Source of the DNA: an uncultured Alphaproteobacteria bacterium
Lineage (GTDB): Bacteria; Pseudomonadota; Alphaproteobacteria; RF32; CAG-239
Length of the DNA stretch: 64,000 bases
Direction: 5' to 3'
Assembly (NCBI GenBank): GCA_944391345.1
Contig: CALXTE010000002.1
Span: forward strand, 27,220-91,219
In this document: in pieces, positions 1,404 through 21,748 of the stretch
How the letters are laid out: each line of letters opens with the position of its first letter
Numbering within the stretch: the first letter of the stretch is position 1
Notes under the pieces: model-generated
Databases searched by the model: none
What the model saw: only the letters and a program-made list of their open reading frames with translations
What the model was told of the DNA's origin: nothing
Translations under genes and position numbers: made by a program

Positions 1404-1406
1404 GGC

Positions 1407-1640
1407 TCACCTTCCTTTCTTTTCGAGCATAAGTTCTATTTTGACCTTGAGCTCGGTTAAAATCTCATTATTTTCACGCAGAGCCTTATTAAGAACATCA
1501 AACTTTGTGAGCGTAATTGAAGAATCCCGTTCCAAAGCTGCAACTTTTGTTTCAATAATGCCCTGCCATTTTCCAAAGCGGATAAAATTAAACAACACAC
1601 CGCATAAGGATAAAATGACACCAGCTGCTTCCCAGTCCAT
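1407..1640 (-). CDS. holin-like protein
   Basis: 77 aa with a single TM (AAGVILSLCGVLFNFIRF) followed by a coiled-coil tail. It lies immediately upstream of the lysin-like gene. Confidence 0.45.
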   Translation of the reverse strand: MDWEAAGVILSLCGVLFNFIRFGKWQGIIETKVAALERDSSITLTKFDVLNKALRENNEILTELKVKIELMLEKKGR

Positions 1641-1646
1641 AGATTG

Positions 1647-2132: not shown

Positions 2133-2143
2133 ATTTTATACTC

Positions 2144-3626: not shown

Positions 3627-3628
3627 AT

Positions 3629-4405: not shown

Positions 4406-4425
4406 AATACATCTCCCGAAAAGAA

Positions 4426-5109: not shown

Positions 5110-5113
5110 AACA

Positions 5114-5527
5114 TTAACTCCATAAAGATTCAGAATTTAAGATAGAAAGAACAAAAGCGTCCTCGCCGTTTTCACGAAAAGCACGAAGACGCCCCTCAAT
5201 TTTAAAACCCAGCCTTTTCACCAAGTTCAGACAGGCTTGGTTCGAAACACTCACCAAAAGGCTAATTCTTCGACATTTCAACACATTAAACGCCATATCA
5301 AAGATAAAACGTAAAACTTTTCGGCAGCACCAACGCTTGTCATTGGTATAGATTGTCCACCAAACATCATGATTGGGGCGATAATTATTAAAAATAAGCC
5401 CGCCGACAAGCTTTCCGCCTTCAACAAAACCAATGGTATAATTTTCACCGACCCAAGCATCACTTTCGCCCAAAGAAGAACAAACCCAATGGGCAATCAG
5501 CCCGCAGGAATCTTGAATAATTTCCAT
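5114..5527 (-). CDS. GNAT-family N-acetyltransferase
   Basis: The C-terminal RRISLLVSVSNQACLNLVKRLGFKIEGRLR is an acetyl-CoA-binding GNAT core. I place the start at the ATG at 5525-5527, preceded by GGAGGT. The longer track ORF (to 5632) would overlap the upstream gene. Confidence 0.65.
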   Translation of the reverse strand: MEIIQDSCGLIAHWVCSSLGESDAWVGENYTIGFVEGGKLVGGLIFNNYRPNHDVWWTIYTNDKRWCCRKVLRFIFDMAFNVLKCRRISLLVSVSNQACLNLVKRLGFKIEGRLRAFRENGEDAFVLSILNSESLWS

Positions 5528-5546
5528 ATATACCTCCCAAAAAACA

Positions 5547-7115
5547 TCAAAGGAAACCGGAACCTTGCTCAAAACGACAGTCTGTTCCATACCACTCAAT
5601 GGCATTTCCTTTGGTCTTTGTTTTGAATACAAGACTAAATTTCAGCCCCGTTGCCGAAGTTCCTATCCATTGGCTGCGAATAACACCTTTGAGCACCGCC
5701 CATTTGGTCCCTGAAGGTGCAGACAAAGAACTCCATTTGGCCTCATTCCAAAAAGTTCGATCCGTTGAATCATTGCCGATATTCTCCACAAAAGGCTGAG
5801 AATCATCAGCAAAATCAGCATTTGCATAAAGCGTTAATGCAAAGGGATTAAAGGCCTTTGTACGCGGATTAAGCAGTTGTAGCTTTTTCATCGCCGTTAT
5901 GCCGAGAGAAGAATAAGCCTGCTCAATATGCCCCTCAATAGGATTAAGCTCATCAGCATAACTTTCATCAAACAACATAATTCCGTCATGCATTCCGAAA
6001 TAAGCCCGATTCTGATACAGCCCCCAACAAAGCGCCGGAATATTTGTAAAGCGGCACCATGCACCGGTATTAAGATTCACCACATGTTGCTCAAAGCTCT
6101 GATTAATCGGAACATTAAACAAAGCATAGCCACCGCGATTATAGATAAACGGCTGCCACCCGAATTTATCCTGAGACAAAGCCGTCCGCTCCAAAACCAA
6201 ACCTCTTATTTTATCCGAAAAAGAAATCTGCGAGTTATTGGCACTGTTTAACGGCAAAGCCTTTGACAGAGGCAAATAACCGTCAACCGAAACCAGCACC
6301 ACATCCCCCTGATATTGCAAAATACAACGATACCCGATTGGCCGTCCGACCCGATAAACCCCGCGCAACTTCCAATCTTCGGCAGAATTAGGATTGGCAC
6401 CGCTGTATACCAATGCCTCTCCTTCTGAGGTAATAAAAACGGTTAAGTCATCTATGCCCATTCCGCCGTCTTGGGTCCAAGAAGCAATCGCCACCAAAGA
6501 CCCGCCATCACGCGCTATCGTCGACATATCAAAGCACAACAATTTTCCTTGCACTTCCGCCGCATTTTCGGAATACCAGGCTTTCATACTGTTTTTTTCA
6601 ACAAACCACAAACGCTGTTTGGAAGAAGTGACATTAACCAAAGACGCCGGAATAAGACCGTCACCGGTAAATTCAGCATTTTTCCAAACACCTTCACCAC
6701 TATCCTCAATCACATAAGTTTGAGGCACATCGGCACCGTTAACGGCAAACAAACGATTTTTAAATTGCACCGTCTGCCACTTGTCATTAGTAAAATTATC
6801 CGCTAATTTTTCAGGAGAAGACTTGGAAGTAACATCCCACAACTCATTATCACAAAAAGCAAAAAAACGGTTTAATCCGCTTTCGGCCTTATGCTCTACC
6901 AAAGTATGAACCGGCTTTCCGGTAACCACATAGCGCACATACCCTTTGCGCAAAGAAACCTTTGTCTCCCCCGGAAAATAATTATCCATAACAATAGCAT
7001 CGCTTTCCTTCATCTGGCCTAAGCTGTCACGCATATTTAACCCGCCGATAGGACAAGGCAGCGTATAGTTTAAGGAACGATTCTGACGATTAACTTTTCG
7101 ACGTTGCATAAACAA
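5547..7115 (-). CDS. large tail protein (tail tubular/nozzle-like by position)
   Basis: 522 aa ORF downstream of the capsid and adaptor-like genes and upstream of the fibers. No motif was recognised. Confidence 0.35.
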   Translation of the reverse strand: MFMQRRKVNRQNRSLNYTLPCPIGGLNMRDSLGQMKESDAIVMDNYFPGETKVSLRKGYVRYVVTGKPVHTLVEHKAESGLNRFFAFCDNELWDVTSKSSPEKLADNFTNDKWQTVQFKNRLFAVNGADVPQTYVIEDSGEGVWKNAEFTGDGLIPASLVNVTSSKQRLWFVEKNSMKAWYSENAAEVQGKLLCFDMSTIARDGGSLVAIASWTQDGGMGIDDLTVFITSEGEALVYSGANPNSAEDWKLRGVYRVGRPIGYRCILQYQGDVVLVSVDGYLPLSKALPLNSANNSQISFSDKIRGLVLERTALSQDKFGWQPFIYNRGGYALFNVPINQSFEQHVVNLNTGAWCRFTNIPALCWGLYQNRAYFGMHDGIMLFDESYADELNPIEGHIEQAYSSLGITAMKKLQLLNPRTKAFNPFALTLYANADFADDSQPFVENIGNDSTDRTFWNEAKWSSLSAPSGTKWAVLKGVIRSQWIGTSATGLKFSLVFKTKTKGNAIEWYGTDCRFEQGSGFL

Positions 7116-7812
7116 TCACCCCCTCATTAAGCACCTTCGGACAATTTTCGGCCAAAGCAATATCCTTGGTTGCCAAACCTGAAGCAAAAGCTTTTTTCAC
7201 TTCGGTTTGATACTCGTTAAACTCTTCTTCATAAGGCATACCGTTTCGTTTATACCAGCGCCAAATAATGCCGAGCTTAACCAAATAAGGATCAAAAAGC
7301 GGCACATCGGTATTTTTGGTAATTTCTGTTTTTTCCGGATTACCATAAAGCTCCAACTCCGGATCATAACAAACATTAGCCGAACGATAATTAAACACGA
7401 TTTTAAGACCGGCGGGCGGCTCGGTTAAAAACACAAAACGCCCCTGCTGAATTTTGAATTTTATGCCGATATCGGAAAAAGAAAAATAACGCTCACGCAT
7501 ATATTGTTCGGGCGAAAGCGCACCGATAACTTTTTCCGAATGATCTTTCACATAAACCGTATTATTCAGCAAACAATAAAAATCAGGGCAAAAATCCTGA
7601 ATATAATAAACCAGTCTGGACGGCTGCGTTCTAAGCTCACCTTCTTTGGTCAGCTCTTGCCAGTTGCCATAACGCTGAAGACTGTTCAGCGTAGACTTGG
7701 CAATACTCAAAAAAATAGCCTCTTGCTGAGAGTTTGAATCAAAAAGCCCCTGCGGCGCTTGCGTCGCCAACAAACTGGCCGCTTCCTGACAAATCTGCAA
7801 AATAGTCGCCAT
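7090..7812 (-). CDS. head-tail adaptor / tail tubular A-like protein (by position)
   Basis: 240 aa ORF in T7-like gene order (portal, scaffold, capsid, small tail, large tail). Confidence 0.3.
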   Translation of the reverse strand: MATILQICQEAASLLATQAPQGLFDSNSQQEAIFLSIAKSTLNSLQRYGNWQELTKEGELRTQPSRLVYYIQDFCPDFYCLLNNTVYVKDHSEKVIGALSPEQYMRERYFSFSDIGIKFKIQQGRFVFLTEPPAGLKIVFNYRSANVCYDPELELYGNPEKTEITKNTDVPLFDPYLVKLGIIWRWYKRNGMPYEEEFNEYQTEVKKAFASGLATKDIALAENCPKVLNEGVIVYATSKS

Positions 7813-7836
7813 AACACCTCCGAAAAAATAAAAAAG

Positions 7837-8394
7837 TTATTTTTTTGCGCGATTATTCAAACGGCGCAATTTTTCAATTTGGCTTTTAAGAAAATCAATT
7901 TCCGCCAGATAACGCTCTTCGCGTTTTTGGGCTTCGATTAAAGCTTTGTGCCCCTTTGCCTGCTGCAAAAAAAGTTTCGCCGCCTTATTTTCCGACGAAA
8001 CACCGATAAGCCGTGCTTTTTCCTCATCAAGCTCAGCCAAAGCCTCAACCGTAAAAATACCGCGAAATTTAAGCGTTTCGATTTCTGCGGCCGTCAGAAA
8101 AGCAAATTGATCCAAAGGAGCTCCTTTTTCGACTTGCTTTTTCGCCAGCAAATAGCGGTTATATTCGGTAGGAAAACGTTGAATTTTATCAGCATCGGCT
8201 GGCTGGTCAAACACATCGTGACAATCGCGCATTCTGATTTCCACAAAACAAACCGTATCAAACACGGGCAAACCGTTTTCATCAAGCTTGTCCGATTTTA
8301 TCAAACGGTCATAAAAACGCGCGGCCACCGTATTATCAGACTTATTTTTAGCACTGTCCAACAACTGCTGAAACATATCAAAATCCATATCCAT
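7837..8394 (-). CDS. phage protein, unknown function
   Basis: 185 aa ORF directly downstream of the capsid gene, with a C-terminal coiled coil. Confidence 0.3.
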   Translation of the reverse strand: MDMDFDMFQQLLDSAKNKSDNTVAARFYDRLIKSDKLDENGLPVFDTVCFVEIRMRDCHDVFDQPADADKIQRFPTEYNRYLLAKKQVEKGAPLDQFAFLTAAEIETLKFRGIFTVEALAELDEEKARLIGVSSENKAAKLFLQQAKGHKALIEAQKREERYLAEIDFLKSQIEKLRRLNNRAKK

Positions 8395-8479
8395 AGAAAT
8401 AACTCCCGAAAAATTAAATAAAAAGAACTCCTAAGGCATCAAAAAAGGCGGAGCCTTGAAGCGCTCCGCCTCCAAGCCG

Positions 8480-9448
8480 CTATGCGTTAATCAAAACACC
8501 CTGCAAAGAAGCATTAGACATGGTCAGATTACCGGCCCAACCGACGATTTTGTATAAAGCATCTTGGTTGACCGACATTCTGTCACCACCGATAACCTTC
8601 ATATTGCGGTCTTTGTGAGAACGCAGATAGAGATAACCGGTATTAAGAAAATACATGTGCTTTTCAGGGCAAAAGCCGCCTTGCCCACCATCACAAACCA
8701 CATCGGCACCTTTGAAACGCAATGTAGCAAAACCGCTGTCAGCCGCTTTAGGATCGGTATAACGCTGTAACGGGGTTAAAGAATCTTCATAAAGCGAATA
8801 CATATCATCACCGGTCACGATTAAGTCCGGCTTGTCGGTACCGCGACACAAAGAGTGATACATACTGTGCATTGCCTTGCCGATGGTTTCAGAAGTCAAA
8901 GCTTCTTCGGCGGTTGTGGCTTTATTACGCCAAAATTCATTGCCGGAAGTCGCACGATTAATACCGCCGACCGTACCGGTAGCCGGAGAATCAGCTACCA
9001 AGAAGCGCAATCCGCCGATTTCCTTACCGGAAGAACCCGTACCATCGCTGTAAATTGCCTTAGACATCTGGTTGCTCATGGTTTTCATGGCATTTTCAAC
9101 TCTTTTTTCAAAGAGGTCGACAATTTTTTCTTTACCGGAGTTTTTGAGCAAATCTTCACCGGAAATAGCAACCGGAACGGCACAAAGTTTCAAAGCATAT
9201 TCAGCCGCGGTAAAGAGCTGTTTGTTGGTATAAGAAATAGTATCATAACCACTATACCAAATCATATCGCCTTCGCCATATTCCAGTTCTTCCAAAATAG
9301 AAGAACCGCCGGAGATTTCGCGAATATTTCCTTTTTCCTGCAAACGTTTAAGCAAGGCATTGTTTTTGCTGACATTATCAGCAAGTTGCTTACTGCGATG
9401 AGCAAGAGAAGTTGTAAGTGCGTCATTATAATTAGAGTTAGCCATCAT
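8480..9448 (-). CDS. major capsid protein
   Basis: 322 aa ORF preceded by a scaffold-like gene and a strong RBS. The size and N-terminal helix are typical of HK97-fold coat proteins. A hairpin follows at about 8440-8470. Confidence 0.6.
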   Translation of the reverse strand: MMANSNYNDALTTSLAHRSKQLADNVSKNNALLKRLQEKGNIREISGGSSILEELEYGEGDMIWYSGYDTISYTNKQLFTAAEYALKLCAVPVAISGEDLLKNSGKEKIVDLFEKRVENAMKTMSNQMSKAIYSDGTGSSGKEIGGLRFLVADSPATGTVGGINRATSGNEFWRNKATTAEEALTSETIGKAMHSMYHSLCRGTDKPDLIVTGDDMYSLYEDSLTPLQRYTDPKAADSGFATLRFKGADVVCDGGQGGFCPEKHMYFLNTGYLYLRSHKDRNMKVIGGDRMSVNQDALYKIVGWAGNLTMSNASLQGVLINA

Positions 9449-9466
9449 AAAATCCTTTACGAAAGT

Positions 9467-10342
9467 TTAGTTTTCATTAATAACACGTTCCAAGATTTGG
9501 CGTGTCGTCAGCTGGTCTTCAGCCGGACGAAGCGCCCTACCTTTTGCCTCAAAAGCGGCCTGCTGAGCCTTTTGAGCATCAGCGGCTTTTTTCTTGAGAG
9601 CATCACTGAGCTGAGCCTCGATTAATTCTTGGCGAACCTCGGGGCTAAGCCACAAAGCCTGAGCATAAGCGTCTTCATAATTTCCGGCGAGATTATGACT
9701 CAGGAGCGCCGCCATAATCGGCCGCACTTTATAAAAATATTTATGCTTGGGAGAACCGTCTTCATTTTTCTCACCCATAAAGCGATCAAACAAAGAGCGA
9801 AACATCTGACGTTCTTTAGCATCAACTTGCGATTTCAGCTGTTGATACTGAGCTTCAAGCGCAGCCACTTTTGACTGCAAAGAAGTCACCGGCTGAGAGG
9901 CCGGCGCAAAAGCCACCCCATAAGCCTCTGCCAAAAAGCGCACGCCTTGAGACGGATTTTCTTCCAGCAAATCCTCAACCTTAGCCAGATATTCCAACCA
10001 CATCTGAGGAGAAGAAAGCCCATATTTGTTAATGCGCTCGGCATGAGCTTTAACAAAATCGTCAACCCACTTCAATCGCTCGACTTGAGCTGACAAAGCA
10101 GAAATTTTGTCTTCGGTTTCAGCATTTTTTTCGCACAAAAATTTGCGCCACTTTAAGGGTAGCAGCACAAAATCCTCAGCAAGCTCAGCCTCAAGGCCGG
10201 CCGGCGGCTCCGAAAAAGTATTTTCTTCTTCGGCCGGCACCACCAACAGAGCTTCTTCGTCGGGCAGAATGTCGCTGTTTGAAGGACCAGAAGCTTTTTC
10301 AAGCTCCTGCTCAATAATTTTTCGTGTTTCAGTTTTATTCAT
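9467..10342 (-). CDS. scaffolding protein
   Basis: Acidic, Ala/Glu/Gln-rich, predicted all-helical 291 aa protein between the portal and capsid genes. Confidence 0.5.
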   Translation of the reverse strand: MNKTETRKIIEQELEKASGPSNSDILPDEEALLVVPAEEENTFSEPPAGLEAELAEDFVLLPLKWRKFLCEKNAETEDKISALSAQVERLKWVDDFVKAHAERINKYGLSSPQMWLEYLAKVEDLLEENPSQGVRFLAEAYGVAFAPASQPVTSLQSKVAALEAQYQQLKSQVDAKERQMFRSLFDRFMGEKNEDGSPKHKYFYKVRPIMAALLSHNLAGNYEDAYAQALWLSPEVRQELIEAQLSDALKKKAADAQKAQQAAFEAKGRALRPAEDQLTTRQILERVINEN

Positions 10343-10565
10343 TCCAAATTAACCTCTTATACTGTTGCAAAAAAGCTGCAAAATTTTCATCTCGCAGCTT
10401 TTTTTCTTGTTGATAGCGGACTGACTTTCGAAAGTCGTCCGAATAATCGCTGGCCATTGCCAAATTATTCCGGCGCAGGTAGCGTTCAATATCATGAACC
10501 GAAGACGCATAAGACCCATCGGGCAATAGCAAATCTTCGCTCCACTCTCTTGAAAAATGAGCCAT
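10335..10565 (-). CDS. small phage protein, unknown function
   Basis: 76 aa ORF overlapping the scaffold gene start. Confidence 0.3.
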   Translation of the reverse strand: MAHFSREWSEDLLLPDGSYASSVHDIERYLRRNNLAMASDYSDDFRKSVRYQQEKKLRDENFAAFLQQYKRLIWNE

Positions 10566-10580
10566 ATTCCCTCCTTAGAC

Positions 10581-12479
10581 TCAAGCCTTGGACGGAGCTG
10601 ACTTTTGCGCTTCGGCTTGCAGTTTAAGCGCCTCTGCACGAAAATCTTTATCCGCCAAAATAAGCTTCACATTCTCAGATTTTTCCTTAAGGGCAAGTTC
10701 TCTGGCTTTAAGAGCATTTTGCTCTTTTTCAAGCTCATAAGTATTGCGCAGCTCCATAAGCTTTAGCTGATCGGAAAAACTCGGCTGTTGCGACGAGGCT
10801 GCCTGAGGCTTTGACGCCGGAGATGATGAATTGGAAGAAGACGCCTCCGGTTGAGCCAAATCGCGTGCAACATCATCAAACACCTTTGACAACACCGATT
10901 CAAAGGAGCGCGATTTTGGCATAGAAGCAGTCAAAGCCTCAGCCATAAGCTGATAAAGCGGCAACAACGCCGGTTGCGCCGACACAATCTGAAAAGCATC
11001 TTGAATAAGCTGAGAAACCGACTTAACCGCCGCACTAATCTGAGAAGCCTCGGCCTCTTGGTCAAACACGGCATCGGTCTCAATCGAAAGCACCATATTG
11101 CGCATTTTATCGGTTTTCAGCAAAGCAACCGCGGCCTGAACCAGAGCAGCATCATTTTTTTCTTCAGGAGATACAAAGGAAAGAACATGTTCAGGCGCAA
11201 ACTGCTCACAAATAATTTCGGCTTTCAACGCATATAAGTCACATAAGAACCGCTGCATATCATTTTGACGGTCTTGGTTGCGCAGTGTTCCGAAATTTGT
11301 TTTTTGTTTGACCGCGGTTGCTGTTTCGGACTGAGAGGAAGTCCCTCGCATAATGTCCGAAATTCCGGTAATACGATAAATATTCTCAATAATATCATCA
11401 CGGCGCAAAGCCAAAGCCTGCAAAGCAGAAATATATTGCTCAACCGGCATAAAGTCGACAATCCCTTTCAGCCCGCCGGCTGATTTAAGTTTGTCAAAAT
11501 CTTGCACCGCCACAAGGGAAACATCTTTGTTCAAAATATCGGCCAAATGAGGAAACGAGCTGTCATAAGCACCGGTCACTTTGAGCGCCTTCATGGTCAG
11601 GCTCATACGGTCGATAACGCCGGACAGCTCTTCCAAATCGGCTTTAATCATACAAAAATCCGGAACCGGAATGATTGAATCATTGGATTGTGTCGCAAAC
11701 ACCGGCTTCGGACAAGGGAAAAAGTTTTCCAACCCGAGCGGATCATCAACCTCTCGCAAAAAGGCATCGGGAAAATCCTTGCACCACCAACGAACTTTCT
11801 TGTCTTCTTTGTCCCAAATTTCATAAACACAATATTCTTTATAACAATCATCATCGGCAACCGGCACCGTCAACAACACCGGAGAAGAAGCAAAAGCCTC
11901 AAGCAAAGCCTTGGCGCTGAGAAAATGCTTGCGTGCCACCCAAGTCACGTCTTCCCAAATTCCGACATGGTCGGTATCGGCCAAAAAGTTTTTCGGATCC
12001 ACATATTCAGACACGACTTTTTCACCGGTTTTAACCAAAACCTCATGATTTTGCTCATCAAGCACAGTTGTAAATTCGGGCTTATAGCTTTCCCACAAAA
12101 TTCCGCAACCCGAGATTAAAAAGTCATTCCGCGCATATTTTGCGACCGAATCAAAATCAAACCGCGACAAATCCCAAGCCAATAATCGCTCCATCAAGCG
12201 ACAGGCCAAGGCCTCCGCCGGAGAATAATTTTTATTAATCCTATCAACACAGGGCTTTGGCTGTTTGAAATAAAGAAACGGCTTTTGCGTCTCGATTCCC
12301 GACCAAAAAATGCTGCACGCACTTCCGACCTTAAGCGTCGAACTCAGCCCTGACGCGGCCAGCTTATAGCTCTCGCGCGTTTCATCTATTAAGTTATAAT
12401 AAGATTGATAAGCCGCCTCTGCCGCACTGATTTTTTCTGCCCAAAGAGCCGGCTTTGACTCAAAAACTTTTTTTGACAT
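10581..12479 (-). CDS. portal protein
   Basis: 632 aa ORF immediately after the terminase genes and before the scaffold and capsid genes. It has an acidic, Ser-rich, coiled C-terminal tail. Confidence 0.6.
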   Translation of the reverse strand: MSKKVFESKPALWAEKISAAEAAYQSYYNLIDETRESYKLAASGLSSTLKVGSACSIFWSGIETQKPFLYFKQPKPCVDRINKNYSPAEALACRLMERLLAWDLSRFDFDSVAKYARNDFLISGCGILWESYKPEFTTVLDEQNHEVLVKTGEKVVSEYVDPKNFLADTDHVGIWEDVTWVARKHFLSAKALLEAFASSPVLLTVPVADDDCYKEYCVYEIWDKEDKKVRWWCKDFPDAFLREVDDPLGLENFFPCPKPVFATQSNDSIIPVPDFCMIKADLEELSGVIDRMSLTMKALKVTGAYDSSFPHLADILNKDVSLVAVQDFDKLKSAGGLKGIVDFMPVEQYISALQALALRRDDIIENIYRITGISDIMRGTSSQSETATAVKQKTNFGTLRNQDRQNDMQRFLCDLYALKAEIICEQFAPEHVLSFVSPEEKNDAALVQAAVALLKTDKMRNMVLSIETDAVFDQEAEASQISAAVKSVSQLIQDAFQIVSAQPALLPLYQLMAEALTASMPKSRSFESVLSKVFDDVARDLAQPEASSSNSSSPASKPQAASSQQPSFSDQLKLMELRNTYELEKEQNALKARELALKEKSENVKLILADKDFRAEALKLQAEAQKSAPSKA

Positions 12480-12490
12480 TCAGAAAACTC

Positions 12491-12760
12491 CTAAAATTTA
12501 AACAACAAGCTTTTATCACGTATCACAACAATATCGCCGTCCCAAACCGGCAGCTCGTCAAAACAGTGAAACATCACTCTGTCCCCAACGGCCACATCGG
12601 CTTTAACCTCGGGACCGATTGCCAAAACCGTTGCCACATTGCGCACGGCATAAGTATCATCGGCAAGGATAAGTCCGCCGGCGGTTTCCGAATTTTTTGG
12701 TTCAAGTTTTAAGACCAAACGATCGGTCACCGGCACAAAGTTCGGACAAGCTTCTACCAT
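12491..12760 (-). CDS. GroES/Cpn10-like co-chaperonin
   Basis: VPVTDRLVLKLEPKNSETAGGLILADD...VGDRVMF aligns with the GroES pattern (RPLxDRVLVK..E.ETKSAGGIVL...VGDxVxF), including the mobile-loop region. Confidence 0.6.
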   Translation of the reverse strand: MVEACPNFVPVTDRLVLKLEPKNSETAGGLILADDTYAVRNVATVLAIGPEVKADVAVGDRVMFHCFDELPVWDGDIVVIRDKSLLFKF

Positions 12761-14076
12761 TTGTCATCTCCTTGATTATACGAGTTAAACACATCTTCCC
12801 ATAAGAGCTGCTTGGGGCGATACATCTGCAGCGCCAGATTATCAAAAACCCGCTCGGCAAAAGTCAAAGCAAGCGCATCAGCCTTGTCCGGCGAACGTCC
12901 GAGCCTTTTTTTGATTTCATCTTTTTCTTCAAGCAGCAAGCGCCCGCGGCGGTCATATTTTTTGTTGACGCAACAAAGATCGGTCAGCAAATCCTCATCA
13001 TAAAACAAAGCCACCTGTGGCTCGGAGATAAGCCAATCATGCAGATTGTCCCACATCTCGGCACGCCGATTGGCATAACGCTCGGAAAGCAAGGCGCGCT
13101 CGCCAAAATTAACGGCTTTCACCACCTCGCCTAAGCCTCTGTCTTTAAGAATGTCATAAACACCGGCCCCCACGCCGCCAATATCAACAAACATCCGCTT
13201 GGGCTGATTTTCTCTGATAAAAAAAGTGGCCTGATTAGCCACTTCCACCACATCAAGCCCCGAAAAACTTTCTATTCGAAAACAACTTCGCCCCCGCCGA
13301 AAACAAAACACGGTTTTGTCATCACCAAAGCGCGCCACATCCACCCCGATAATCAAAGGCGAAGACGGCATCGGCAGCTGCTGTTGAAAAGCGCGCCGCA
13401 CATCTGTAGCCGAAATCAGCTTGGTATTTCCCTGCCGCCTTGGCTCACCGAGCCAAATATGCTCGTAATCTTCGGGAGAAGAAACCTTGCATTTTTCGGC
13501 CTGAAGCCTGATTTCTTCGGGACAAAAAGGATTATCGTAATAATTGACTTTAACCACCAAAGTGCGTGCATCCGGATTCGCCGCCACCAAAACCCACAAA
13601 GGGTCGTTTTCCTCTTCTCTGTTCATGGAAATCCAGATTTGCGACCCGTCTTTACGAATAGTCGGCTCCAAAATTTCCCAGCTTTTGCGCGTAATGGCCT
13701 GTGCTTCTTCAATCCAAGCGATATCAACGCCTTCAAGTGATTTTATTTTTTGACTGTCCTGATTACGCAAGCCTTTAAAAACAAAGCGCGAACCGGTTAT
13801 TTTGTTTTCGATTTTAGAATCCGAAACCGCATAATCATCAAGCCCATAAAAAGAGATTCGGTCGCATAAAAGCTTATAAACCGAATCTTTCATGCTGTTT
13901 TGAATCTCGCGCAGACAAGCAATAAACAGCCTTTTTTGCCGCCCCAAAAGAAGCAGACTATCGGCAAAGGCATAAGATTTTCCGCCGGCACGCCCGCCAT
14001 AAAAAAATTTGTTACGATAATCAGATGTCAAAAGCGGCGCAAAAATTTTAGGAATTTGCACTTCAACCTGTTTCAC
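12754..14076 (-). CDS. terL: terminase large subunit (PBSX/Terminase_3-like)
   Basis: N-terminal Walker A GGRAGGKSY, ATPase motif IAWIEEA, and a C-terminal nuclease region with VDVARFGDDKTV. Confidence 0.85.
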   Translation of the reverse strand: MKQVEVQIPKIFAPLLTSDYRNKFFYGGRAGGKSYAFADSLLLLGRQKRLFIACLREIQNSMKDSVYKLLCDRISFYGLDDYAVSDSKIENKITGSRFVFKGLRNQDSQKIKSLEGVDIAWIEEAQAITRKSWEILEPTIRKDGSQIWISMNREEENDPLWVLVAANPDARTLVVKVNYYDNPFCPEEIRLQAEKCKVSSPEDYEHIWLGEPRRQGNTKLISATDVRRAFQQQLPMPSSPLIIGVDVARFGDDKTVFCFRRGRSCFRIESFSGLDVVEVANQATFFIRENQPKRMFVDIGGVGAGVYDILKDRGLGEVVKAVNFGERALLSERYANRRAEMWDNLHDWLISEPQVALFYDEDLLTDLCCVNKKYDRRGRLLLEEKDEIKKRLGRSPDKADALALTFAERVFDNLALQMYRPKQLLWEDVFNSYNQGDDKW

Positions 14077-14088
14077 AAGACCTCCGCT

Positions 14089-14466
14089 TTATTCAACAAA
14101 TTTAACCAACACCTGAGGAACATCACTTTCTTTTTCTTCCTCATGTTCTTTTTGGGGCTTATCCAAACCAAGCAGCTTAGCCTTCCCCATTGAAGCCGAG
14201 ACGGCAGCGGCAGCCATTTCTTTATCAATGGCCACCTGTCGCGCCTCTTCCAGTTCTTCCAGCAGCTTTTCCAACGAGAGTTGAGCCCGCTGCATGGCTT
14301 TTTGTCGCAGACTATCGAGCTTTAATTTTATCTTAGGATTTTTCTTAAGGCGGGCGGCAGCTTTTTGCGGGCAGGAATAACCGGCAAGCCGAGCCGCTTG
14401 AGCACCGACGCCACACTTGATAAATTCCTCCACAAATCGTAATTGTCGAAAAGTTAAATCAGACAT
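14089..14466 (-). CDS. terS: terminase small subunit
   Basis: MSDLTFRQLRFVEEFIKCGVGAQAARLAGYS is the typical HTH N-terminus of Terminase_2-type small subunits. The start is set at the internal ATG at 14464-14466. Confidence 0.75.
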   Translation of the reverse strand: MSDLTFRQLRFVEEFIKCGVGAQAARLAGYSCPQKAAARLKKNPKIKLKLDSLRQKAMQRAQLSLEKLLEELEEARQVAIDKEMAAAAVSASMGKAKLLGLDKPQKEHEEEKESDVPQVLVKFVE

Positions 14467-14841
14467 AACACCAACAAACCTCAAAGAAAAAGGAGAGAAG
14501 CAAAAACTTCTCTCCGGAAAAGTAATGAACATTATATGGAATACAAATCACCGCTAGGTATTTACCACAAGACTGCTGAACACAACTTCGTCCAGCATAT
14601 AACAAGATATATCAAAAAAAAGCATTTTTGTCTTCTCCAAAAATGTCCCGACAAATTAAAACGCTCAAAATCCCCGTAAATATTGAAGAATCAATGTGTA
14701 AAAAAATCAAAAAAAACCAAAAATTTTGTAGGACGATGCGATAAGATATTGAAAATACTTAACAAAAAAAATTTTTGAACTATTATTTAAAAATTAAAAT
14801 TTAGGCTTATATCCTATAAAGGACTTGAAACGAAAGGATTA

Positions 14842-15447
14842 ATGATTATGGATAAAAGCTTTTATAACCTTCTGGTACAAAGACGTTCGATATATGCGAT
14901 TGACCACAAAATTTCCCAGTCCGAAGAAGAAGTTAAGGACTTAATCAAACAAGCTTTGAAATATTGTCCCACGGCTTTTAATTCACAGTCCGGACGAATC
15001 CTTGCTTTATTTAACGATAGCAATCAAAAATTCTGGAATCTGACTTATGCAGAACTAACCAAAGTCGCACCGATCGCCAAACACGCCGAGTTAAAAGCCA
15101 AGATAAATTCCTTTGCATCCGGATTCGGCACGGTTCTGTTTTTTGAAGATGAAGACGTTGTCCACGGGCTTGAAAAACAATATCCGGCCTATAAAGAACG
15201 ATTCGCCGACTGGTCGCTTCAATCAAGCGGCATGCTCCAATTTGCTTTGTGGTGCTTATTTGCCGACAACAATATTGGCGCCAGCTTGCAACACTATTCA
15301 CCTTTGGTCGAAAATTTTATCTATGATGAATTCAAGCTTCCCTTAAGCTGGAAACTCAACGCCCAAATGCCCTTTGGCCGAATTGTATCACCGGCCGATG
15401 AAAAAACATTTGTCAGCCTCGATTCGCGCTTCAAAACCGCCGATTAA
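14842..15447 (+). CDS. nitroreductase-family protein
   Basis: The LVQRRSIYAIDH N-terminus and overall pattern match the nitroreductase fold. Confidence 0.6.
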   Translation: MIMDKSFYNLLVQRRSIYAIDHKISQSEEEVKDLIKQALKYCPTAFNSQSGRILALFNDSNQKFWNLTYAELTKVAPIAKHAELKAKINSFASGFGTVLFFEDEDVVHGLEKQYPAYKERFADWSLQSSGMLQFALWCLFADNNIGASLQHYSPLVENFIYDEFKLPLSWKLNAQMPFGRIVSPADEKTFVSLDSRFKTAD

Positions 15448-15928: not shown

Positions 15929-16092
15929 AAGGCATCTCCATAAATTAAATTAATACCATCCAAGATATAATTCCCCCAAAAGCAAAAACAAGTTTCGCAC
16001 CGCAAAAGAAATCTAATTTTAGACAATGCTAATCTCTTGAAGCGCTAATATAAAAGATTACATAAAGCTAAACGCAACAAAGGAGCAAAAAA

Positions 16093-17340
16093 ATGGAAGC
16101 ACCAATGTCTATTTACGAGCGACTTGACAAACTAAAATCCGGCATCATCTATCGCAAAAATCAAGAAGACAGAATCCAACTTGCCTTTGATTTAATCTAT
16201 TCCAAAATAGAAGAGATTGATTGCATCATCTGGATCAGCCGTGAACATATTATTCATTCCAAAACTTATAAAAAATATTTAGACAAATACTCCGAGGGCT
16301 TTCGCAGCAAGTTATTTGTCTTTCCGATAGAATGCGCCTCTTTTTCAACGCTAACGCTCTTACAAATACATGATTTAGTCGCCAACAAAAGAGCCTTTTG
16401 CGTTGTTGACAACTGCTTGATTATAAAAAATTCAAAATCAAAAAGAACCAAAGAGCTGATAAAACTCGGTCCTTTGTTCAAATATCGACTGATTTTAACC
16501 GAACTTCCGGTTTCCGGCGGTTTGGTCGATTTTTACGCTCAACTGCAATTTATCAATCCCCAAATTTTAAACATGACCAAAATTCAGTTTAATCACGCCT
16601 ACCTAAAAAAGCTAAAAAGCGCGTTTCAACAAGCCAAAAGATGGTCCTACCCCGAACAAGAAGTCTCCTTGATAGAAAAAATCAGACCCTATATTTTTGA
16701 AAACGAAACCGAATATCACGAATGTTTCAAAAATTATGACATTTACTGTGACCTCACGCCCAAAGAAGCCCGCTGTTATCAAGAAGAAAAAAATTTATAT
16801 CTTGAGCGCCGCGCCAAAGCTCCGTTTATTGAAATAATCCACCGATTCCAACATATGTATACCATCTGCCAAAACAAAGTTGAAAAACTTTTTGAACTCG
16901 TGAGTGATATCAAACTAAAAAAAGAAAAAGTCGTCATTTATGTAAAATTCAGAGATGAAATCAACTTTTTTGAAGAATGCGGCTGGTTCAAACCGGGAGA
17001 ATATTCCGTTTTAGCCGGAAAAATAAATAAAAATCGCGCCTTGAAAGAGTTCGAAAAAAAAACTAATATATTATTTAGCACATATGGTGTGGATAATTCG
17101 GGGTTAGATATGCAGAATTGTAATAATGTGATATTCTTTTCCCAAACCTTTGATTATAAGTTCAAGCATCAGGCCTTGAAGAATCTTCCGCAGCATGACC
17201 GGCAGCATGAGATAAAAATATATAATCTGTGGGTAAAAACAGGACTGGATGAAATGATGCGACAGAGCCTGCTGATGAAAGAAAACGTCGTCAGTAACTT
17301 GTGCAGCATGATTTCCAAAGAGGAGGCACTAAGATTATGA
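16093..17340 (+). CDS. SNF2-family helicase-like protein with degenerate ATPase motifs
   Basis: FCVVDNCLIIKNSKSKRT (motif II region), YRLILTELPVSGGLVDFYAQLQFINP (motif III region) and a helicase-C lobe (VVIYVKF...ILFSTYGVDNSGLDMQNCNNVIFF). There is no Walker A, DExH is replaced by DNCL, and the motif VI arginines are absent. Confidence 0.6.
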   Translation: MEAPMSIYERLDKLKSGIIYRKNQEDRIQLAFDLIYSKIEEIDCIIWISREHIIHSKTYKKYLDKYSEGFRSKLFVFPIECASFSTLTLLQIHDLVANKRAFCVVDNCLIIKNSKSKRTKELIKLGPLFKYRLILTELPVSGGLVDFYAQLQFINPQILNMTKIQFNHAYLKKLKSAFQQAKRWSYPEQEVSLIEKIRPYIFENETEYHECFKNYDIYCDLTPKEARCYQEEKNLYLERRAKAPFIEIIHRFQHMYTICQNKVEKLFELVSDIKLKKEKVVIYVKFRDEINFFEECGWFKPGEYSVLAGKINKNRALKEFEKKTNILFSTYGVDNSGLDMQNCNNVIFFSQTFDYKFKHQALKNLPQHDRQHEIKIYNLWVKTGLDEMMRQSLLMKENVVSNLCSMISKEEALRL

Positions 17341-18638
17341 AAAAATACCTCGATAAGAGTGTATATGAAGCAACAAATGAGAGAATAAAATATATATTTG
17401 ATAATTTTGACAATATATATGTTTCTTTTTCCGGTGGTAAAGACAGCGGATTGTTGCTAAATCTGGTATTAGACTATAAGCGCCGCAACAATATCAAAAG
17501 AAAGATAGGCGTTTTTCATCAAGATTTTGAGGCACAATACAAACAAACCACCGAGTTTGTCACCCGCATGTTTGAAAACAATCTGGCTGACATAGATCCT
17601 TATTGGGTCTGCCTGCCGATGGGCTCACGCTGTGCGGTCAGCAACTATCAAATGTATTGGTACACTTGGGATCCGGATGAAAAAGACAAATGGGTCAGAG
17701 AAATGCCCAGCATGCCTTATATTATCAACCTCAATAATAACCCGTTTGATTTTTACAAATACAAAATGGTTCAAGAAGACCTTTATGCCGACTTTGCAGA
17801 CTGGTTTTCTCGCCAACATAAAGGCAAATCAATCTGCCTGCTGGGCATAAGAGCCGACGAGTCGCTCAACCGATTCCGTGCTTATGCCAACGCGCGCAAA
17901 GACTTAATTGATAACAAACAGTGGACCACCAAGATGGGCAAAAACTGGTATAACGCCTACCCGCTTTATGACTGGACCACCAAAGATGTCTGGATCGCCA
18001 ACGGCAAATTCGGATTCGATTATAACAAAATTTATGACTTGTTCTATAAAGCCGGCTTGTCTATTCACCAAATGAGGGTTGCCAGCCCGTTTCATGAGGC
18101 TGCCAAAGAAGGCTTAAACTTATACCGCGTATTAGAGCCTGATACTTGGGTCAGAGTTGTCGGCCGCGTACAAGGCGCAAACTTCGGCGCCATGTATGGT
18201 AACACAAAATTACTCGGCAGCCGCCGCATCACTTTGCCCAAAGGGCATACCTGGAGATCTTACGTCAAATTTTTGCTGGCCACTTTGCCGGATGAAATGA
18301 GAAGAAATTATATTGAAAAGTTCAAAACCTCAATCAAATTCTGGTGGCGCAAAGGCGGCGTTGTCGATGAAAAAGCCATTCAGGAGCTTGAAGCCTGCAA
18401 CTATAACATTCGCCGCAACGGCCCCAGCCCTTATCACAGCGTCAAAGAACAAGTTCGTTTTTTAGGCACACCGGACAGCACCGATGACATCAAGTCAACC
18501 ATTGACATTCCGTCATGGAAGCGCATGGCCGTCTGCATTCTGAAAAATGACCACTTGTGCAAACACATGGGCTTTGCTCAGACCAAAAAACAGTCTGAAA
18601 GAGAAAAAGAATTACTCAACAAATATCGTAACTTATAA
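17337..18638 (+). CDS. ibrA: IbrA-like PAPS-reductase/PP-loop domain protein with DUF3440-like C-terminus
   Basis: PP-loop motif YVSFSGGKDSG. The C-terminal IPSWKRMAVCILKNDHLCKHMGF is typical of DUF3440. The ATG overlaps the upstream stop (ATGA). Confidence 0.75.
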   Translation: MKKYLDKSVYEATNERIKYIFDNFDNIYVSFSGGKDSGLLLNLVLDYKRRNNIKRKIGVFHQDFEAQYKQTTEFVTRMFENNLADIDPYWVCLPMGSRCAVSNYQMYWYTWDPDEKDKWVREMPSMPYIINLNNNPFDFYKYKMVQEDLYADFADWFSRQHKGKSICLLGIRADESLNRFRAYANARKDLIDNKQWTTKMGKNWYNAYPLYDWTTKDVWIANGKFGFDYNKIYDLFYKAGLSIHQMRVASPFHEAAKEGLNLYRVLEPDTWVRVVGRVQGANFGAMYGNTKLLGSRRITLPKGHTWRSYVKFLLATLPDEMRRNYIEKFKTSIKFWWRKGGVVDEKAIQELEACNYNIRRNGPSPYHSVKEQVRFLGTPDSTDDIKSTIDIPSWKRMAVCILKNDHLCKHMGFAQTKKQSEREKELLNKYRNL

Positions 18639-18648
18639 GGCAAACAAG

Positions 18649-19203
18649 ATGACAGAAAAAAAATCCACCACCGCCGACAAAACAACCACCGACAAAAATT
18701 TCGTCAGTCCGGTTTATAATGTTAAGGCCGTCCCGCTTGAGAAAATAAAAGCCAATGACTACAACCCGAACAGAGTAGCCCCGCCGGAGATGAAATTGCT
18801 TGAAACATCCATCTGGGAAGATGGCTTTACCCAGCCGATTGTCTGCTATCATGACAAAGAAAAAGACGAATATATTATCGTTGACGGCTTCCACCGTTAT
18901 ACAACCATGATGATATCCGACCGCATCCGCGAAAGAGAGCACGGCAAAATTCCGGTTGTTGTAATTGATAAAGACTTAGGCGAAAGAATAGCCTCAACGA
19001 TTCGTCACAACCGCGCCCGCGGTAGCCACAATGTTGACCTGATGAGCAACATTGTTAAGGAACTGCTTGAGCTTGAGAAGAGCGACGCTTGGATTGCCCG
19101 CAATATCGGCATGTCTGCGGATGAAATTTTGCGTTTGAAACAAATCACCGGCTTAGCCGCCTTGTTCAAGAACGAAGAATTCTCCCGCAGCTGGGAATTA
19201 TAA
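18649..19203 (+). CDS. ibrB: IbrB-like ParB/Srx N-terminal-domain (ParB-like nuclease) protein
   Basis: KIKANDYNPNRV, PIVCYHDKEKDEYIIVDGFHRY and TIRHNRARGSH are ParB/Srx core motifs. The start is set at the ATG at 18649, 10 nt after the ibrA-like stop. Confidence 0.7.
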   Translation: MTEKKSTTADKTTTDKNFVSPVYNVKAVPLEKIKANDYNPNRVAPPEMKLLETSIWEDGFTQPIVCYHDKEKDEYIIVDGFHRYTTMMISDRIREREHGKIPVVVIDKDLGERIASTIRHNRARGSHNVDLMSNIVKELLELEKSDAWIARNIGMSADEILRLKQITGLAALFKNEEFSRSWEL

Positions 19204-19210
19204 GATATAA

Positions 19211-19240
19211 TCAGAAAGACCTTTTTATAAGGTCTTTCTG
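19211..19240. terminator. bidirectional intrinsic terminator
   Basis: Perfect palindrome CAGAAAGACCTTTTTATAAGGTCTTTCTG between convergent genes. Confidence 0.7.
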
Positions 19241-19241
19241 A

Positions 19242-20234
19242 TTATTTACTAACACACCGACGAGCACTATAATCATAATAATACCCATATTCACAGGCAC
19301 AGCCTTTATATTTCCCATGACAAGAAGAACCCGTTGGCTCCATAAACAGAGAACAACTCTCGATTGTATATCCATCACAGCTTTCCGCATAATTTTCATT
19401 ATATGACTTTATCGGAAATTCCAAAACAGGATAAACATCAAAGACACTTGATTTTGGATAGTTTAGAATAGTTGGACTCGTATTATATCCGTTATCAATA
19501 GAATTTTTACTATAATCATAGAACCAAGCATATTGTTCATTATATTCAGTTGAAGACCATACATTACTGTTTTTAGCCGGCATAACACCAGCAGTCCTAC
19601 TAAAAGCACTATTTATTGCAGCCTGATTACTTACATAAGAATATAAAATTCCTGCTGCAGGTAAACACCAATCACCGGCATTTGTGCCTTCAGTGCTGTA
19701 TTCATGTGCAGCCCACGCTGCAGGGTAAATAGATTTATCTCCATTATCTAATATTTTCTTTGTATTAAGACAACTACTAAAATCTTTTCGAGCATCTTCA
19801 GCATCTAAATTATCTAATACAGCACGATCTTCATTTCCTCCCCAAGAATTCCCCCAAGCATAAGTTCCGATAGATTTTAATGCAAGGGCCTGCCCACCAC
19901 CTGTTTCATCTGCATAAACAACAATACCAATCGGTTCTTTTCCTACCAACATTGATATAGAGCAACTCATATCAGAATACAAAATACTTCCTATAGCACA
20001 GCTCTCTTTTTGTTGCTGTTCAATAGTATTTTTAAGTTCCGTAATCTCTGTTTTTATATCGTTAATACTGCAATTCCATGCTTCACCAAACGGGCATTTT
20101 ATACCATTGGTGCAGCTTGATGAACTGGTATAGCCCATTGCCGTACAGCTCGGGGTGGCGATGCAGGCCGCATTTGCTTGCACAATGCCGCCACAAAGAA
20201 CAAATGCTGTTGTTGTATAGAGTAATGTTTTCAT
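19242..20234 (-). CDS. secreted Cys-rich protein with DUF1566 (Lcl C-terminal)-like domain, copy B1
   Basis: Signal peptide MKTLLYTTTAFVLCGGIVQANA. DUF1566-like motifs are WCLPAAGIL and VWSSTEY...AWFY. The start is at the ATG at 20232-20234, preceded by an AAGGAGAAAG RBS. Confidence 0.65.
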   Translation of the reverse strand: MKTLLYTTTAFVLCGGIVQANAACIATPSCTAMGYTSSSSCTNGIKCPFGEAWNCSINDIKTEITELKNTIEQQQKESCAIGSILYSDMSCSISMLVGKEPIGIVVYADETGGGQALALKSIGTYAWGNSWGGNEDRAVLDNLDAEDARKDFSSCLNTKKILDNGDKSIYPAAWAAHEYSTEGTNAGDWCLPAAGILYSYVSNQAAINSAFSRTAGVMPAKNSNVWSSTEYNEQYAWFYDYSKNSIDNGYNTSPTILNYPKSSVFDVYPVLEFPIKSYNENYAESCDGYTIESCSLFMEPTGSSCHGKYKGCACEYGYYYDYSARRCVSK

Positions 20235-20253
20235 CTTCTTTCTCCTTTGTTTT

Positions 20254-21069
20254 TTACATTGCGCAATAGTCGCAATAATCGGTATAACCGCTTTTGCAGC
20301 CGGTGGCATACCACAAGCCCGAACAATCCTCATATTCGCAATTCATGCCTTGCGGGCAAGTTTCATATTTCCCCTGGTTCGGGCAAGGTTTGCAGTTGTC
20401 ATATTTGGTGGCCGTTCCCGACATACAAGTTGCCGCACCGGCTTCACCGCCCATTGAGCCGCAGTCTTGAAAACCGTCGCAAGGGTTGATTTTGACTTTA
20501 TATTTTGTTTGACCGTCACAATCGAGACAGGCTTCGCCGTCTTGAATATAGCCTTCGGGAATAGTCGTGTTGTCATATCCGGCGCCGCAAGGGGTGCAGG
20601 TGCAAGACGCGTATTTTCCGTCGCAAGGCTCCCCGACGCCGATATGCGGTTCTTCACAAGTGACGTAATCACTCGGGCAAGAAGCCACGCATTCCGAATA
20701 ATACGGACCATACGGACATTTCTTGCCGCCGAGTTCATACCACTCTGGACAAGAAGCATAAATAAAACCTTCATTAAAACAGCGTTCAGCGGGATTAAGA
20801 TCAAAGCTTGGGACATCAACACTTGTTCCGCCGCTAAACAAACTATCGGCACAAGCCGAAGCATCGTTAATAAAACAGACCGCCGCGGTTTTAATCTCAT
20901 CAGAAGAAGGCAAACTTGATGACCAAGCATAAAGGTGTGTGTGAAGTGTGTAGACAAGCTGCTCGTCACTTTTGATAACAGAATTATCAGCTCTCGCGCC
21001 GGTCGGTGAAATTCCTACCGCCAAACATAGCGCCGCGGTTATAACCGCCTTTTGCCGTGAGATAAACAT
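20254..21069 (-). CDS. secreted, extremely Cys-rich protein, copy A1
   Basis: Signal peptide followed by dense CxxC / CPxxY / CxCxPC patterns. It is a close paralogue of the 49611-50513 gene. Confidence 0.65.
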   Translation of the reverse strand: MFISRQKAVITAALCLAVGISPTGARADNSVIKSDEQLVYTLHTHLYAWSSSLPSSDEIKTAAVCFINDASACADSLFSGGTSVDVPSFDLNPAERCFNEGFIYASCPEWYELGGKKCPYGPYYSECVASCPSDYVTCEEPHIGVGEPCDGKYASCTCTPCGAGYDNTTIPEGYIQDGEACLDCDGQTKYKVKINPCDGFQDCGSMGGEAGAATCMSGTATKYDNCKPCPNQGKYETCPQGMNCEYEDCSGLWYATGCKSGYTDYCDYCAM

Positions 21070-21223: not shown

Positions 21224-21748
21224 TTACCATTTTTCCCAATGGACGCGCTCTTCTTTGTGGCGCTCTGGCTGTTTAGGCTCTTCTGCCGGATAACCGAGTA
21301 CAACGATTGAAAAAGGTCTGACATTTTCCGGCAATTCAAAATATTCTTTAATGGCATGAATCGGACCAAGCATCGGCGCTGCACCGCACCAACAAGCCCC
21401 AAGCCCCAAAGCATGAGCTGCAAGCAAAATATTCATTGTCGCAGCCGATCCGTCAATGTCAATATAACTCCAGCCTTCTTTTTCTCTGTGAAAAGCGACA
21501 TCTTCACGGCAACAAACCAAAACCACCGCCGCCGCATTTTCAGCAAACAAAGCCGAACGCTGCAACACTCTGAAATGTTTGAGCTTTTCTTTGTCTTGGA
21601 TAATCAAAAACTCCCACGGCTGAGTATTATGCGCCGACGGAGCAAACTCTCCAGCCTCAACAACTTTTTCTAACAATTCTTTCGGAATAGGTTTATCCTG
21701 AAATTTTCGAACCGAACGTCTGGTTAAAAGACCTTCCATAAGCTCCAT
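21224..21748 (-). CDS. nitroreductase-family protein
   Basis: LLTRRSVRKFQDKPIPKELLEKVVEAGEFAPSAHNTQPWEFLII is the canonical nitroreductase N-terminus. Confidence 0.8.
   Translation of the reverse strand: MELMEGLLTRRSVRKFQDKPIPKELLEKVVEAGEFAPSAHNTQPWEFLIIQDKEKLKHFRVLQRSALFAENAAAVVLVCCREDVAFHREKEGWSYIDIDGSAATMNILLAAHALGLGACWCGAAPMLGPIHAIKEYFELPENVRPFSIVVLGYPAEEPKQPERHKEERVHWEKW

Follow-up and report, generated by a model that had tools for sequence, protein, structure and literature searches.

The closest described relatives of the locus reported here are the IbrA/IbrB pair of an island in Escherichia coli ECOR-9 and the YbdN/YbdM pair of E. coli K-12. Both have the same core, i.e. a protein combining PAPS_reduct and DUF3440 domains, followed by a small protein with a ParB_N domain, and the two genes usually overlap. 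Neither E. coli pair is accompanied by an SNF2 gene, and ybdNM adjoins citR/ybdO, a gene for a LysR-type regulator. IbrA and IbrB are said to activate jointly the prophage eib genes of ECOR-9, a finding attributed to Sandt et al. in 2002 (J Bacteriol). We analyzed a three-gene operon (g1, g2 and g3) within a 64,000-nucleotide stretch of DNA, referred to below as the window, from an uncultured gut member of the Alphaproteobacteria (contig CALXTE010000002.1 of assembly GCA_944391345.1, positions 27,220 to 91,219). Genes g2 and g3 encode an IbrA/IbrB pair, to which, in comparison with the E. coli pairs, the operon adds a dedicated SNF2-fold subunit with an apparently dead ATPase, the stop codon of its gene overlapping the IbrA start. 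The trio is a genuine conserved functional unit, and we see an even chance that the operon was domesticated from an accessory cassette of a phage or prophage and works on DNA. Its genes and the elements bordering them are as follows.

16093-17340, plus strand: g1, 415 aa; minimal SNF2-fold protein, predicted to be catalytically dead, dedicated partner of IbrAB
17337-18638, plus strand: g2, 433 aa; IbrA/YbdN-like PP-loop ATP pyrophosphatase with a C-terminal DUF3440
18649-19203, plus strand: g3, 184 aa; IbrB/YbdM-like ParB/Srx-fold protein
15929-16092, plus strand: AT-rich intergenic leader, 164 bp, G+C content 0.32; presumed promoter region
19207-19245, no strand: hairpin with a perfect 17-bp stem, located between g3 and a convergent minus-strand gene (19242-20333)

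Related parts recur in several systems that act on DNA. In Dnd, and also in the case of SspD and BrxP, a PP-loop enzyme of the phosphoadenosine phosphosulfate (PAPS) reductase superfamily is found beside a protein of the ParB/Srx superfamily (PMC12839542, PMC10164549). BREX type 4 is defined by a BrxP-like PAPS reductase fused to, or located beside, DUF4007, together with BrxC, PglZ and BrxL (PMC12839542). The Dpd locus encodes the transglycosylase DpdA, the SNF2-like DpdE and DpdB, a ParB-like NTPase that is required for the modification of double-stranded DNA (dsDNA). In the case of 5mYOX176/ParB176, a small phage ParB is the cognate activator, on dsDNA, of a post-replicative DNA-modifying enzyme (PMC13229309).

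The window locus differs from each of these. Unlike Dnd, Ssp and BREX, it contains no DndA/IscS, DndD, DndE, SspB/C, BrxC, PglZ or BrxL, nor any of the neighbors typical of BREX type 4; a cysteine desulfurase, DndD/SspC and DndE/SspB were all absent within 10 kb on the window contig and within 8 kb on the contigs of its relatives. IbrA carries DUF3440 in place of the C-terminal region of DndC, and g2 reaches only 21.7 bits with the DndC model TIGR03183 (cut-off 290.4). Its PADLOC matches to DndC (E 1.7e-6) and BrxP (E 2.8e-5) are limited to approx. 100 residues and to 30 residues comprising the PP-loop, respectively. The link to DNA phosphorothioation drawn in a preliminary description of this DNA is therefore weak. 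Compared with Dpd, the window lacks a TGT-family enzyme, the preQ0 pathway and restriction genes, and the likeness of g1 to DpdE is weak (E 3e-5). The IbrB motif DGFHR is alike in concept to DGQQR of DpdB (PMC10164549), and it sits where DpdB and ParB proteins have the nucleotide-binding DGQQR/GxxRxxA motif. Finally, 5mYOX176 is an Fe(II)/2-oxoglutarate dioxygenase and not a PP-loop enzyme, and it has no SNF2 partner. The three proteins matched no known defense system in PADLOC-DB 2.0.0. The IbrAB dyad is already known, and published annotations of phages already show the triad; as had been supposed, we found no paper or defense catalog that names or analyzes the triad, and an earlier mention in a comparative genomics study is possible.

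Operon structure and the three encoded proteins

The three open reading frames (ORFs) form one unit, in which the stop codon of g1 overlaps the start codon of g2 (ATGA, 17337-17340) and a gap of 10 nt separates the stop codon of g2 from the start codon of g3, exactly as previously noted. The overlap of g1 and g2 suggests translational coupling. Inspection of the sequence revealed an AAGGAG ribosome-binding site 7 nt 5′ of the g1 ATG. The leader is indeed AT-rich and is presumed to hold the operon promoter; the promoter proposed there could not be placed, as a consensus scan of the 164 bp found no sigma-70-like sequence. Beyond g3, the perfect hairpin described at 19211-19240 exists, but it is slightly longer (19207-19245). 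Its predicted RNA fold has a free energy of -23.4 kcal/mol (z = -7.9), which was equaled by none of 200 shuffled sequences, and it is probably a bidirectional terminator.

The operon had also been described as an AT-rich island. This applies to g1 (G+C content 0.365), but g2 (0.432) and g3 (0.461) match the mean of the window (0.427). In all 18 alphaproteobacterial loci compared, the G+C content of g1 is lower than that of g2, g3 and the locus average. Recent transfer of a whole AT-rich island was therefore rejected as an explanation, and the low G+C content of g1 alone fits relaxed constraint on this gene.

Profile hidden Markov model searches against Pfam confirmed the domains expected in all three proteins. 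The product of g2 contains PAPS_reduct (PF01507, residues 27-237, E 1.7e-10) and DUF3440 (PF11922, residues 240-421, E 3.5e-77) domains, aligns end to end with E. coli YbdN (35% identity) and belongs to phrog_2302. Its PP-loop, SGGKDS at residues 32-37, is invariant across the aligned IbrA sequences. Four cysteine residues, C92, C167, C400 and C408, were considered as candidates for Fe-S cluster binding or sulfur transfer. Each shows conservation in 78-83 of 84 sequences and is lost in some of them (YbdN, phage CR28). Scores of g2 were far below the cut-offs of the TilS and LarE models.

The product of g3 has a ParB_N domain (E 8e-7), matches phrog_2159 (E 9.6e-80) and aligns with YbdM and with the phage copies; the motifs NPN, DGFHR and RHNRARG are common to g3 and YbdM. 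The best named matches are Noc and Spo0J. The protein does not qualify as a component of a ParABS system, however, since its score with TIGR00180 (parB_part) is 26.5 against a cut-off of 58.45, and no ParA gene was found in the window locus or in the loci of relatives examined. A C-terminal helical segment is read as resembling a helix-turn-helix. With the domain combination of g2, a ParB_N protein encoded immediately downstream and full-length homology of both products to YbdN and YbdM, the proposed IbrA/IbrB pairing was borne out. The ratios of nonsynonymous to synonymous substitution rates (dN/dS) relative to the syntenic locus L098 (g2, 0.015; g3, 0.035) reveal purifying selection on both genes.

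The product of g1 had been viewed as an SNF2-like protein with a dead ATPase, and both elements of this view are upheld. It matches SNF2-rel_dom (E 2.5e-7) and Helicase_C (E 2e-6) in Pfam and, at the sequence level, Ino80 and a Sulfolobus Rad54-like protein in PDB. An AlphaFold2 model (predicted local distance difference test score, pLDDT, 79.6) comprises a whole two-lobe SNF2 motor core, which in Foldseek superposes on ISW1, CSB/Rad26, INO80, SNF2h and Mot1 with template modeling (TM) scores of 0.65-0.77. The two RecA-like lobes and the SNF2-specific insertions that define the family are thus present. The catalytic motifs, in contrast, are lost: (i) motif I (Walker A) reads NQEDRI, where active relatives have GTGKT, (ii) motif II is VVDNC, with DN for DE, and lacks the catalytic glutamate (this position is occupied by E in 47, D in 23 and N in 3 of 73 family members), and (iii) motif VI reads HQALKNLPQHDRQ, where active relatives have EQSxxRxxRxGQ, so that the arginine fingers are gone.

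Twenty alphaproteobacterial copies of g1 were examined (those of the window, of the relative L098 and of 18 other genome or metagenome loci), and GxGKT and R..R.GQ are absent from all of them. Motifs I and VI are kept in every phage, Firmicutes and Bacteroidota copy examined; the phage copies retain motifs I, II and VI as GTGKT, DES and R..R.GQ. Judged by these motifs, the dead ATPase is a derived state shared by the whole clade in a gut alphaproteobacterial lineage. This clade-wide pseudo-ATPase is the new element relative to the known IbrAB dyad.

The possibility that g1 is a truncated gene or a pseudogene was rejected on the basis of its conserved length, its full predicted two-lobe fold and its dN/dS. 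The family consists of proteins of approx. 416 aa in 75 clusters, and this length is conserved in more than 60 of them; proteins identical to g1 were also found on metagenome scaffolds. The dN/dS of g1 is 0.085 relative to L098 and 0.030 in another comparison, both values indicating purifying selection despite the lost catalytic motifs. The gene nevertheless diverges much faster than its partners: the products of g1, g2 and g3 share 51%, 93% and 91% identity, respectively, with their counterparts in locus L007. We read this fast divergence as relaxed constraint following the loss of catalysis, with a binding or scaffold role retained.

Linkage of the three genes and their occurrence in phages

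An IbrA profile search was performed with one genome per species and the best 80 loci were kept. IbrB is encoded directly downstream of IbrA in all 80. A g1 homolog precedes the IbrA gene in 21 of these loci, which originate from 19 gut Alphaproteobacteria, one Clostridiales metagenome-assembled genome (MAG) and one Draconibacterium MAG. The full triad is present in each of the 19 gut alphaproteobacterial genomes found to contain IbrA. The other 59 loci, all of Firmicutes, contain the dyad only, with neither an SNF2 gene within 6 kb nor any other conserved neighbor. The closest genome records are MAGs labeled Alphaproteobacteria, 'Azospirillum sp. UMGS63', Proteobacteria bacterium CAG:495 and Candidatus Scatocola. 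Relatives with g1 identities of 52%, 41% and 32% have the same order of overlapping SNF2-like, IbrA-like and ParB_N genes, inserted in each case between different housekeeping genes.

With the g1 family as the only query, 79 viral contigs were retrieved (23-38% identity). IbrA is encoded by 77 of them, and IbrB in addition by 72; among the 67 viral loci with sufficient flanking sequence, only two lack both partners. The genes occur in three orders (g1-g2-g3, g2-g3-g1 and g1-g3-g2), and such permutation argues for functional coupling and not inherited synteny. The three genes therefore co-localize across phyla, which is what the proposal of a single unit had predicted. As 59 Firmicutes loci contain the dyad only and ybdNM has no SNF2 gene, the SNF2 protein may be regarded as an optional but dedicated partner of IbrAB.

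The dyad itself is widespread. IbrA/IbrB-type pairs form at least 8000 clusters at 90% identity, and ybdN-ybdM of E. coli K-12 (NC_000913.3, 634747-636569; locus L017), a dyad without SNF2, was matched in 5421 of 5426 complete E. coli genomes, which makes it a near-universal core pair of this species. The ybdNM DNA is approx. 75% identical to a fragment labeled as Salmonella phage; matches occur at up to five places in some genomes, and 83 places are on plasmids. Plasmid carriage of the triad is negligible, with only three records matched.

The module is for the most part a cassette of phages or prophages, and the motor there is active as judged from its motifs. The phage cassette comprises the same three families (phrog_2302, phrog_2159 and a short SNF2 protein), tightly linked. 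In GenBank phages, such as Streptococcus phage PY3 and Lactobacillus phage CR28, it lies between lysis genes and early or lysogeny genes, and in one prophage it is placed between the endolysin and integrase genes. Further carriers are S. thermophilus phage CHPC1148 and Flavobacterium psychrophilum phages. GenBank annotates the cassette piecemeal, as a helicase, a PAPS reductase and a ParB-like partition protein. Such a cassette is the evident source of the operon of the window. Neither this phage or prophage origin with an active SNF2 nor the clade-wide loss of the ATPase had figured in the preliminary description.

The phage cassettes differ from the alphaproteobacterial loci in having intact SNF2 motifs and, usually, one or two small genes directly 5′ of the cassette. 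The small genes encode proteins of approx. 85-160 aa, which belong to phrog_27058 and to a related family and have no Pfam match; each family occurs in approx. 35 loci. These were found among the viral loci L105-L183 (e.g. L106:1764-2036 and L106:2039-2299), as well as at L015:4362-4751, L016:5685-6014 and L013:7775-8023; a third small upstream family occurs in 11 loci. At a threshold of E ≤ 0.01, neither the window nor the alphaproteobacterial loci yielded homologs of the small phage genes c3, c4 and c6.

Some cassettes contain additional genes. An ectoine-synthase-like cupin (PF06339, E 8.7e-44) is encoded between the IbrA and IbrB genes at L107:4093-4470, and in the same position in L108, L109, L111, L112 and L116, which hints at small-molecule chemistry coupled to the module. 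Another small conserved protein (approx. 130 aa) is encoded beside IbrA at L105:715-1113 and L124:6829-7215, and similar genes occur in L106, L127, L134 and L137; it contains a W[IL]GQxxCC motif and matches nothing in Pfam. A variant prophage cassette (L101:8001-10790), located right after tail genes, encodes an SNF2 protein, a ParB_N protein and a 352-aa protein that ends at the contig edge.

Possible function of the operon

If the operon is a domesticated cassette acting on DNA, its parts may cooperate as follows. IbrA (g2) would catalyze the ATP-driven adenylation of a substrate oxygen, enabling replacement of this oxygen. IbrB (g3) would be a nucleotide- and DNA-binding ParB/Srx partner that either recruits IbrA to dsDNA or activates it there. 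In phages, g1 would be an active SNF2 translocase giving the enzyme access to duplex DNA. In the alphaproteobacterial lineage, ATP binding and hydrolysis by the motor would have been lost, as would the small upstream phage genes, and the dead g1 protein would survive as a non-catalytic DNA-binding or scaffold subunit around an active, highly constrained IbrA/IbrB core. The likely output would be a covalent DNA mark that alters gene expression or protects the DNA.

Several precedents point in this direction. The DNA-modifying enzyme DpdA needs the ATPase DpdB (PMC10164549), a phage thymine dioxygenase requires its ParB only on dsDNA (PMC13229309), and DndB is encoded with the PAPS-reductase-like DndC (PMC12839542). 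The presence of a dedicated short SNF2 motor, which in many phages is an obligate partner of the pair, is strong contextual evidence that IbrAB works on duplex DNA. Taken together, the ParB precedents and this motor make ParB-directed, ATP-dependent covalent DNA chemistry by IbrA the best-supported mechanism, and such chemistry could also explain why IbrAB reportedly activates prophage genes. The data establish the domains, the operon, the obligate linkage of g1 to IbrAB, the phage origin, the loss of motifs across the clade and purifying selection on all three genes; that DNA is the substrate, that the proteins form a complex, that adenylation takes place and what the operon brings about in the cell are inferred.

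Several points weigh against this mechanism. A biochemical activity of IbrA or IbrB was not found in the literature, and no modification-dependent nuclease or reader is linked to the genes in the loci examined. PP-loop enzymes of the IbrA superfamily also act on tRNA and small molecules. The core pair evidently needs no motor, given that 59 of the 80 IbrAB loci, as well as ybdNM, are devoid of SNF2. In the 5mYOX system, the NTP-binding residues of ParB proved dispensable (PMC13229309), so that nucleotide use by IbrB is not assured. No solved structure in PDB matches IbrA by sequence, and an AlphaFold2 model of this protein was discarded, having a pLDDT of 50 and a shallow alignment of homologs at least 76% identical; a search with a seven-sequence IbrA profile yielded only the same set of close homologs.

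A more far-reaching form of the same idea is put forward tentatively. The triad of the gut Alphaproteobacteria may be a fixed epigenetic machine of phage derivation, in which a PP-loop enzyme, directed by a ParB-like clamp, introduces a novel modification of DNA bases or of the backbone through adenylation and substitution, and the dead SNF2 protein serves as a fast-evolving targeting subunit; E. coli ybdNM and hundreds of phages (the latter with an active motor) would then share its chemistry.

It is rather unlikely that the system is a transcription co-activator that leaves DNA unmodified, in which IbrB would bind specific sites, like ParB, KorB or Noc, while the SNF2-like protein, together with IbrA, would help in remodeling RNA polymerase or nucleoid proteins, much like the bacterial SNF2 protein RapA, so that silenced or horizontally acquired genes are switched on. 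The only published phenotype known to us, the reported eib activation by IbrAB, is of this kind, and some sources label the proteins 'co-activator of prophage gene expression'. A dead, binding-only SNF2 protein would be apt for a regulatory scaffold, and a regulator might well have the lineage-wide, core-like distribution observed; the best named matches of g3, Noc and Spo0J, also speak for this explanation. However, the invariant PP-loop and the very low dN/dS of IbrA favor catalysis over a structural role, the SNF2 motor appears fully active in the phage copies, and enzymes embedded in some phage cassettes, such as the EctC-like cupin, suggest chemistry on a substrate.

Anti-phage defense, e.g. 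superinfection exclusion by a prophage, is an improbable function. According to this explanation, IbrAB and the SNF2 protein would detect incoming DNA or modify it, thereby preventing infection, and the chromosomal copy would protect its host; the preliminary description had accordingly considered the operon a defense or anti-defense islet. In prophages, the cassette does occupy the position typical of morons, with lysis genes on one side and the integrase or early genes on the other, and parts of the PP-loop, ParB-like and SNF2-like kinds are found repeatedly among Dnd, Ssp, BREX-4, Dpd, DISARM and Zorya. In addition, g1 has weak PADLOC matches to ZorD (4e-12), DpdE (3e-5) and DrmD, limited to the C-terminal motor part of these proteins. 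Nevertheless, g3 has no PADLOC match and g2 only the marginal ones to DndC and BrxP, and the cassette is also carried by phages for which the region examined has no annotated integrase. The fast evolution of g1 recalls that of arms-race genes, but a dN/dS well below 1, together with the loss of catalytic motifs, fits relaxed constraint. In no locus examined is a nuclease, toxin or other effector linked to the genes, and the triads of relatives lie in varied contexts, among housekeeping genes and not in defense islands, with no nuclease, integrase or known defense gene nearby. The occurrence of the triad in 19 of 19 alphaproteobacterial genomes, and of ybdNM in nearly every E. coli genome, is the opposite of patchy. 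The absence of a PADLOC system and of a nuclease, and the housekeeping neighbors, thus leave the islet interpretation weak.

A role of g2 as a PAPS or adenosine phosphosulfate reductase of sulfur assimilation (an auxiliary metabolic gene beside unrelated genes, or beside a decaying g1) can be dismissed as highly improbable: the family does carry the label 'phosphoadenosine phosphosulfate reductase, host metabolism' in GenBank, PHROG and several papers, and g1 is AT-rich with its catalytic motifs lost, but g2 scores far below the CysH cut-offs (TIGR00434, 18.7 vs 165.1; TIGR02057, 14.3 vs 254.2), lacks the CysH catalytic motif ECG[LI]H and belongs to a family paired with IbrB in 80 of 80 loci, while g1 is an intact ORF of conserved length, under purifying selection, with its stop codon overlapping the g2 start.

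Flanking genes and significance

The region upstream of the operon contains one further large feature.

990-14532, minus strand: phage-like cluster encoding TerS, TerL, a Cpn10-like protein, portal, major head protein, tail proteins, an amidase and tail fibers

The cluster ends with TerS (14089-14532), at the distance of 1.5 kb from g1 that had been reported. The Cpn10-like gene lies between the TerL and portal genes, and no replication or lysogeny genes were seen within the cluster, which may be a defective prophage or an element resembling a gene transfer agent. It is syntenic in the closest relatives (50-83% protein identity with L098), but does not recur in distant ones; its proximity does not support the reading as a defense islet. 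The view that the triad is part of this cluster was rejected, because nitroreductase and BOF genes intervene and the triads of distant relatives are not accompanied by phage genes.

Two nitroreductase-family genes flank the region (14842-15447, plus strand; 21224-21748, minus strand). The stretch between the first of these and g1 differs between close relatives: it contains a BOF gene in the window, none in L099 and, in L098, an extra gene encoding a 260-aa protein in addition. On the other side, two adjacent minus-strand genes (19242-21069) converge on the terminator hairpin, and the stop codon of the nearer one (19242-20333) sits in the hairpin arm. They encode cysteine-rich proteins of 363 and 271 aa, which we read as secreted; neither has a solid Pfam match, the sole match being a weak one to the Lcl C-terminal domain.

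IbrA/IbrB pairs are very common, with ybdNM found in almost all E. coli genomes, yet we found neither a biochemical function nor a solved structure for them. In phage genomes, IbrA and IbrB of the cassette are routinely mislabeled as sulfur-metabolism and partition genes. The alphaproteobacterial clade constitutes a natural experiment, in which the ATPase appears dead and the protein is still under selection, so that a structural or targeting role of SNF2 is separated from its role as a motor. The SNF2-bearing phages of Streptococcus, Lactobacillus and Flavobacterium provide tractable model systems.

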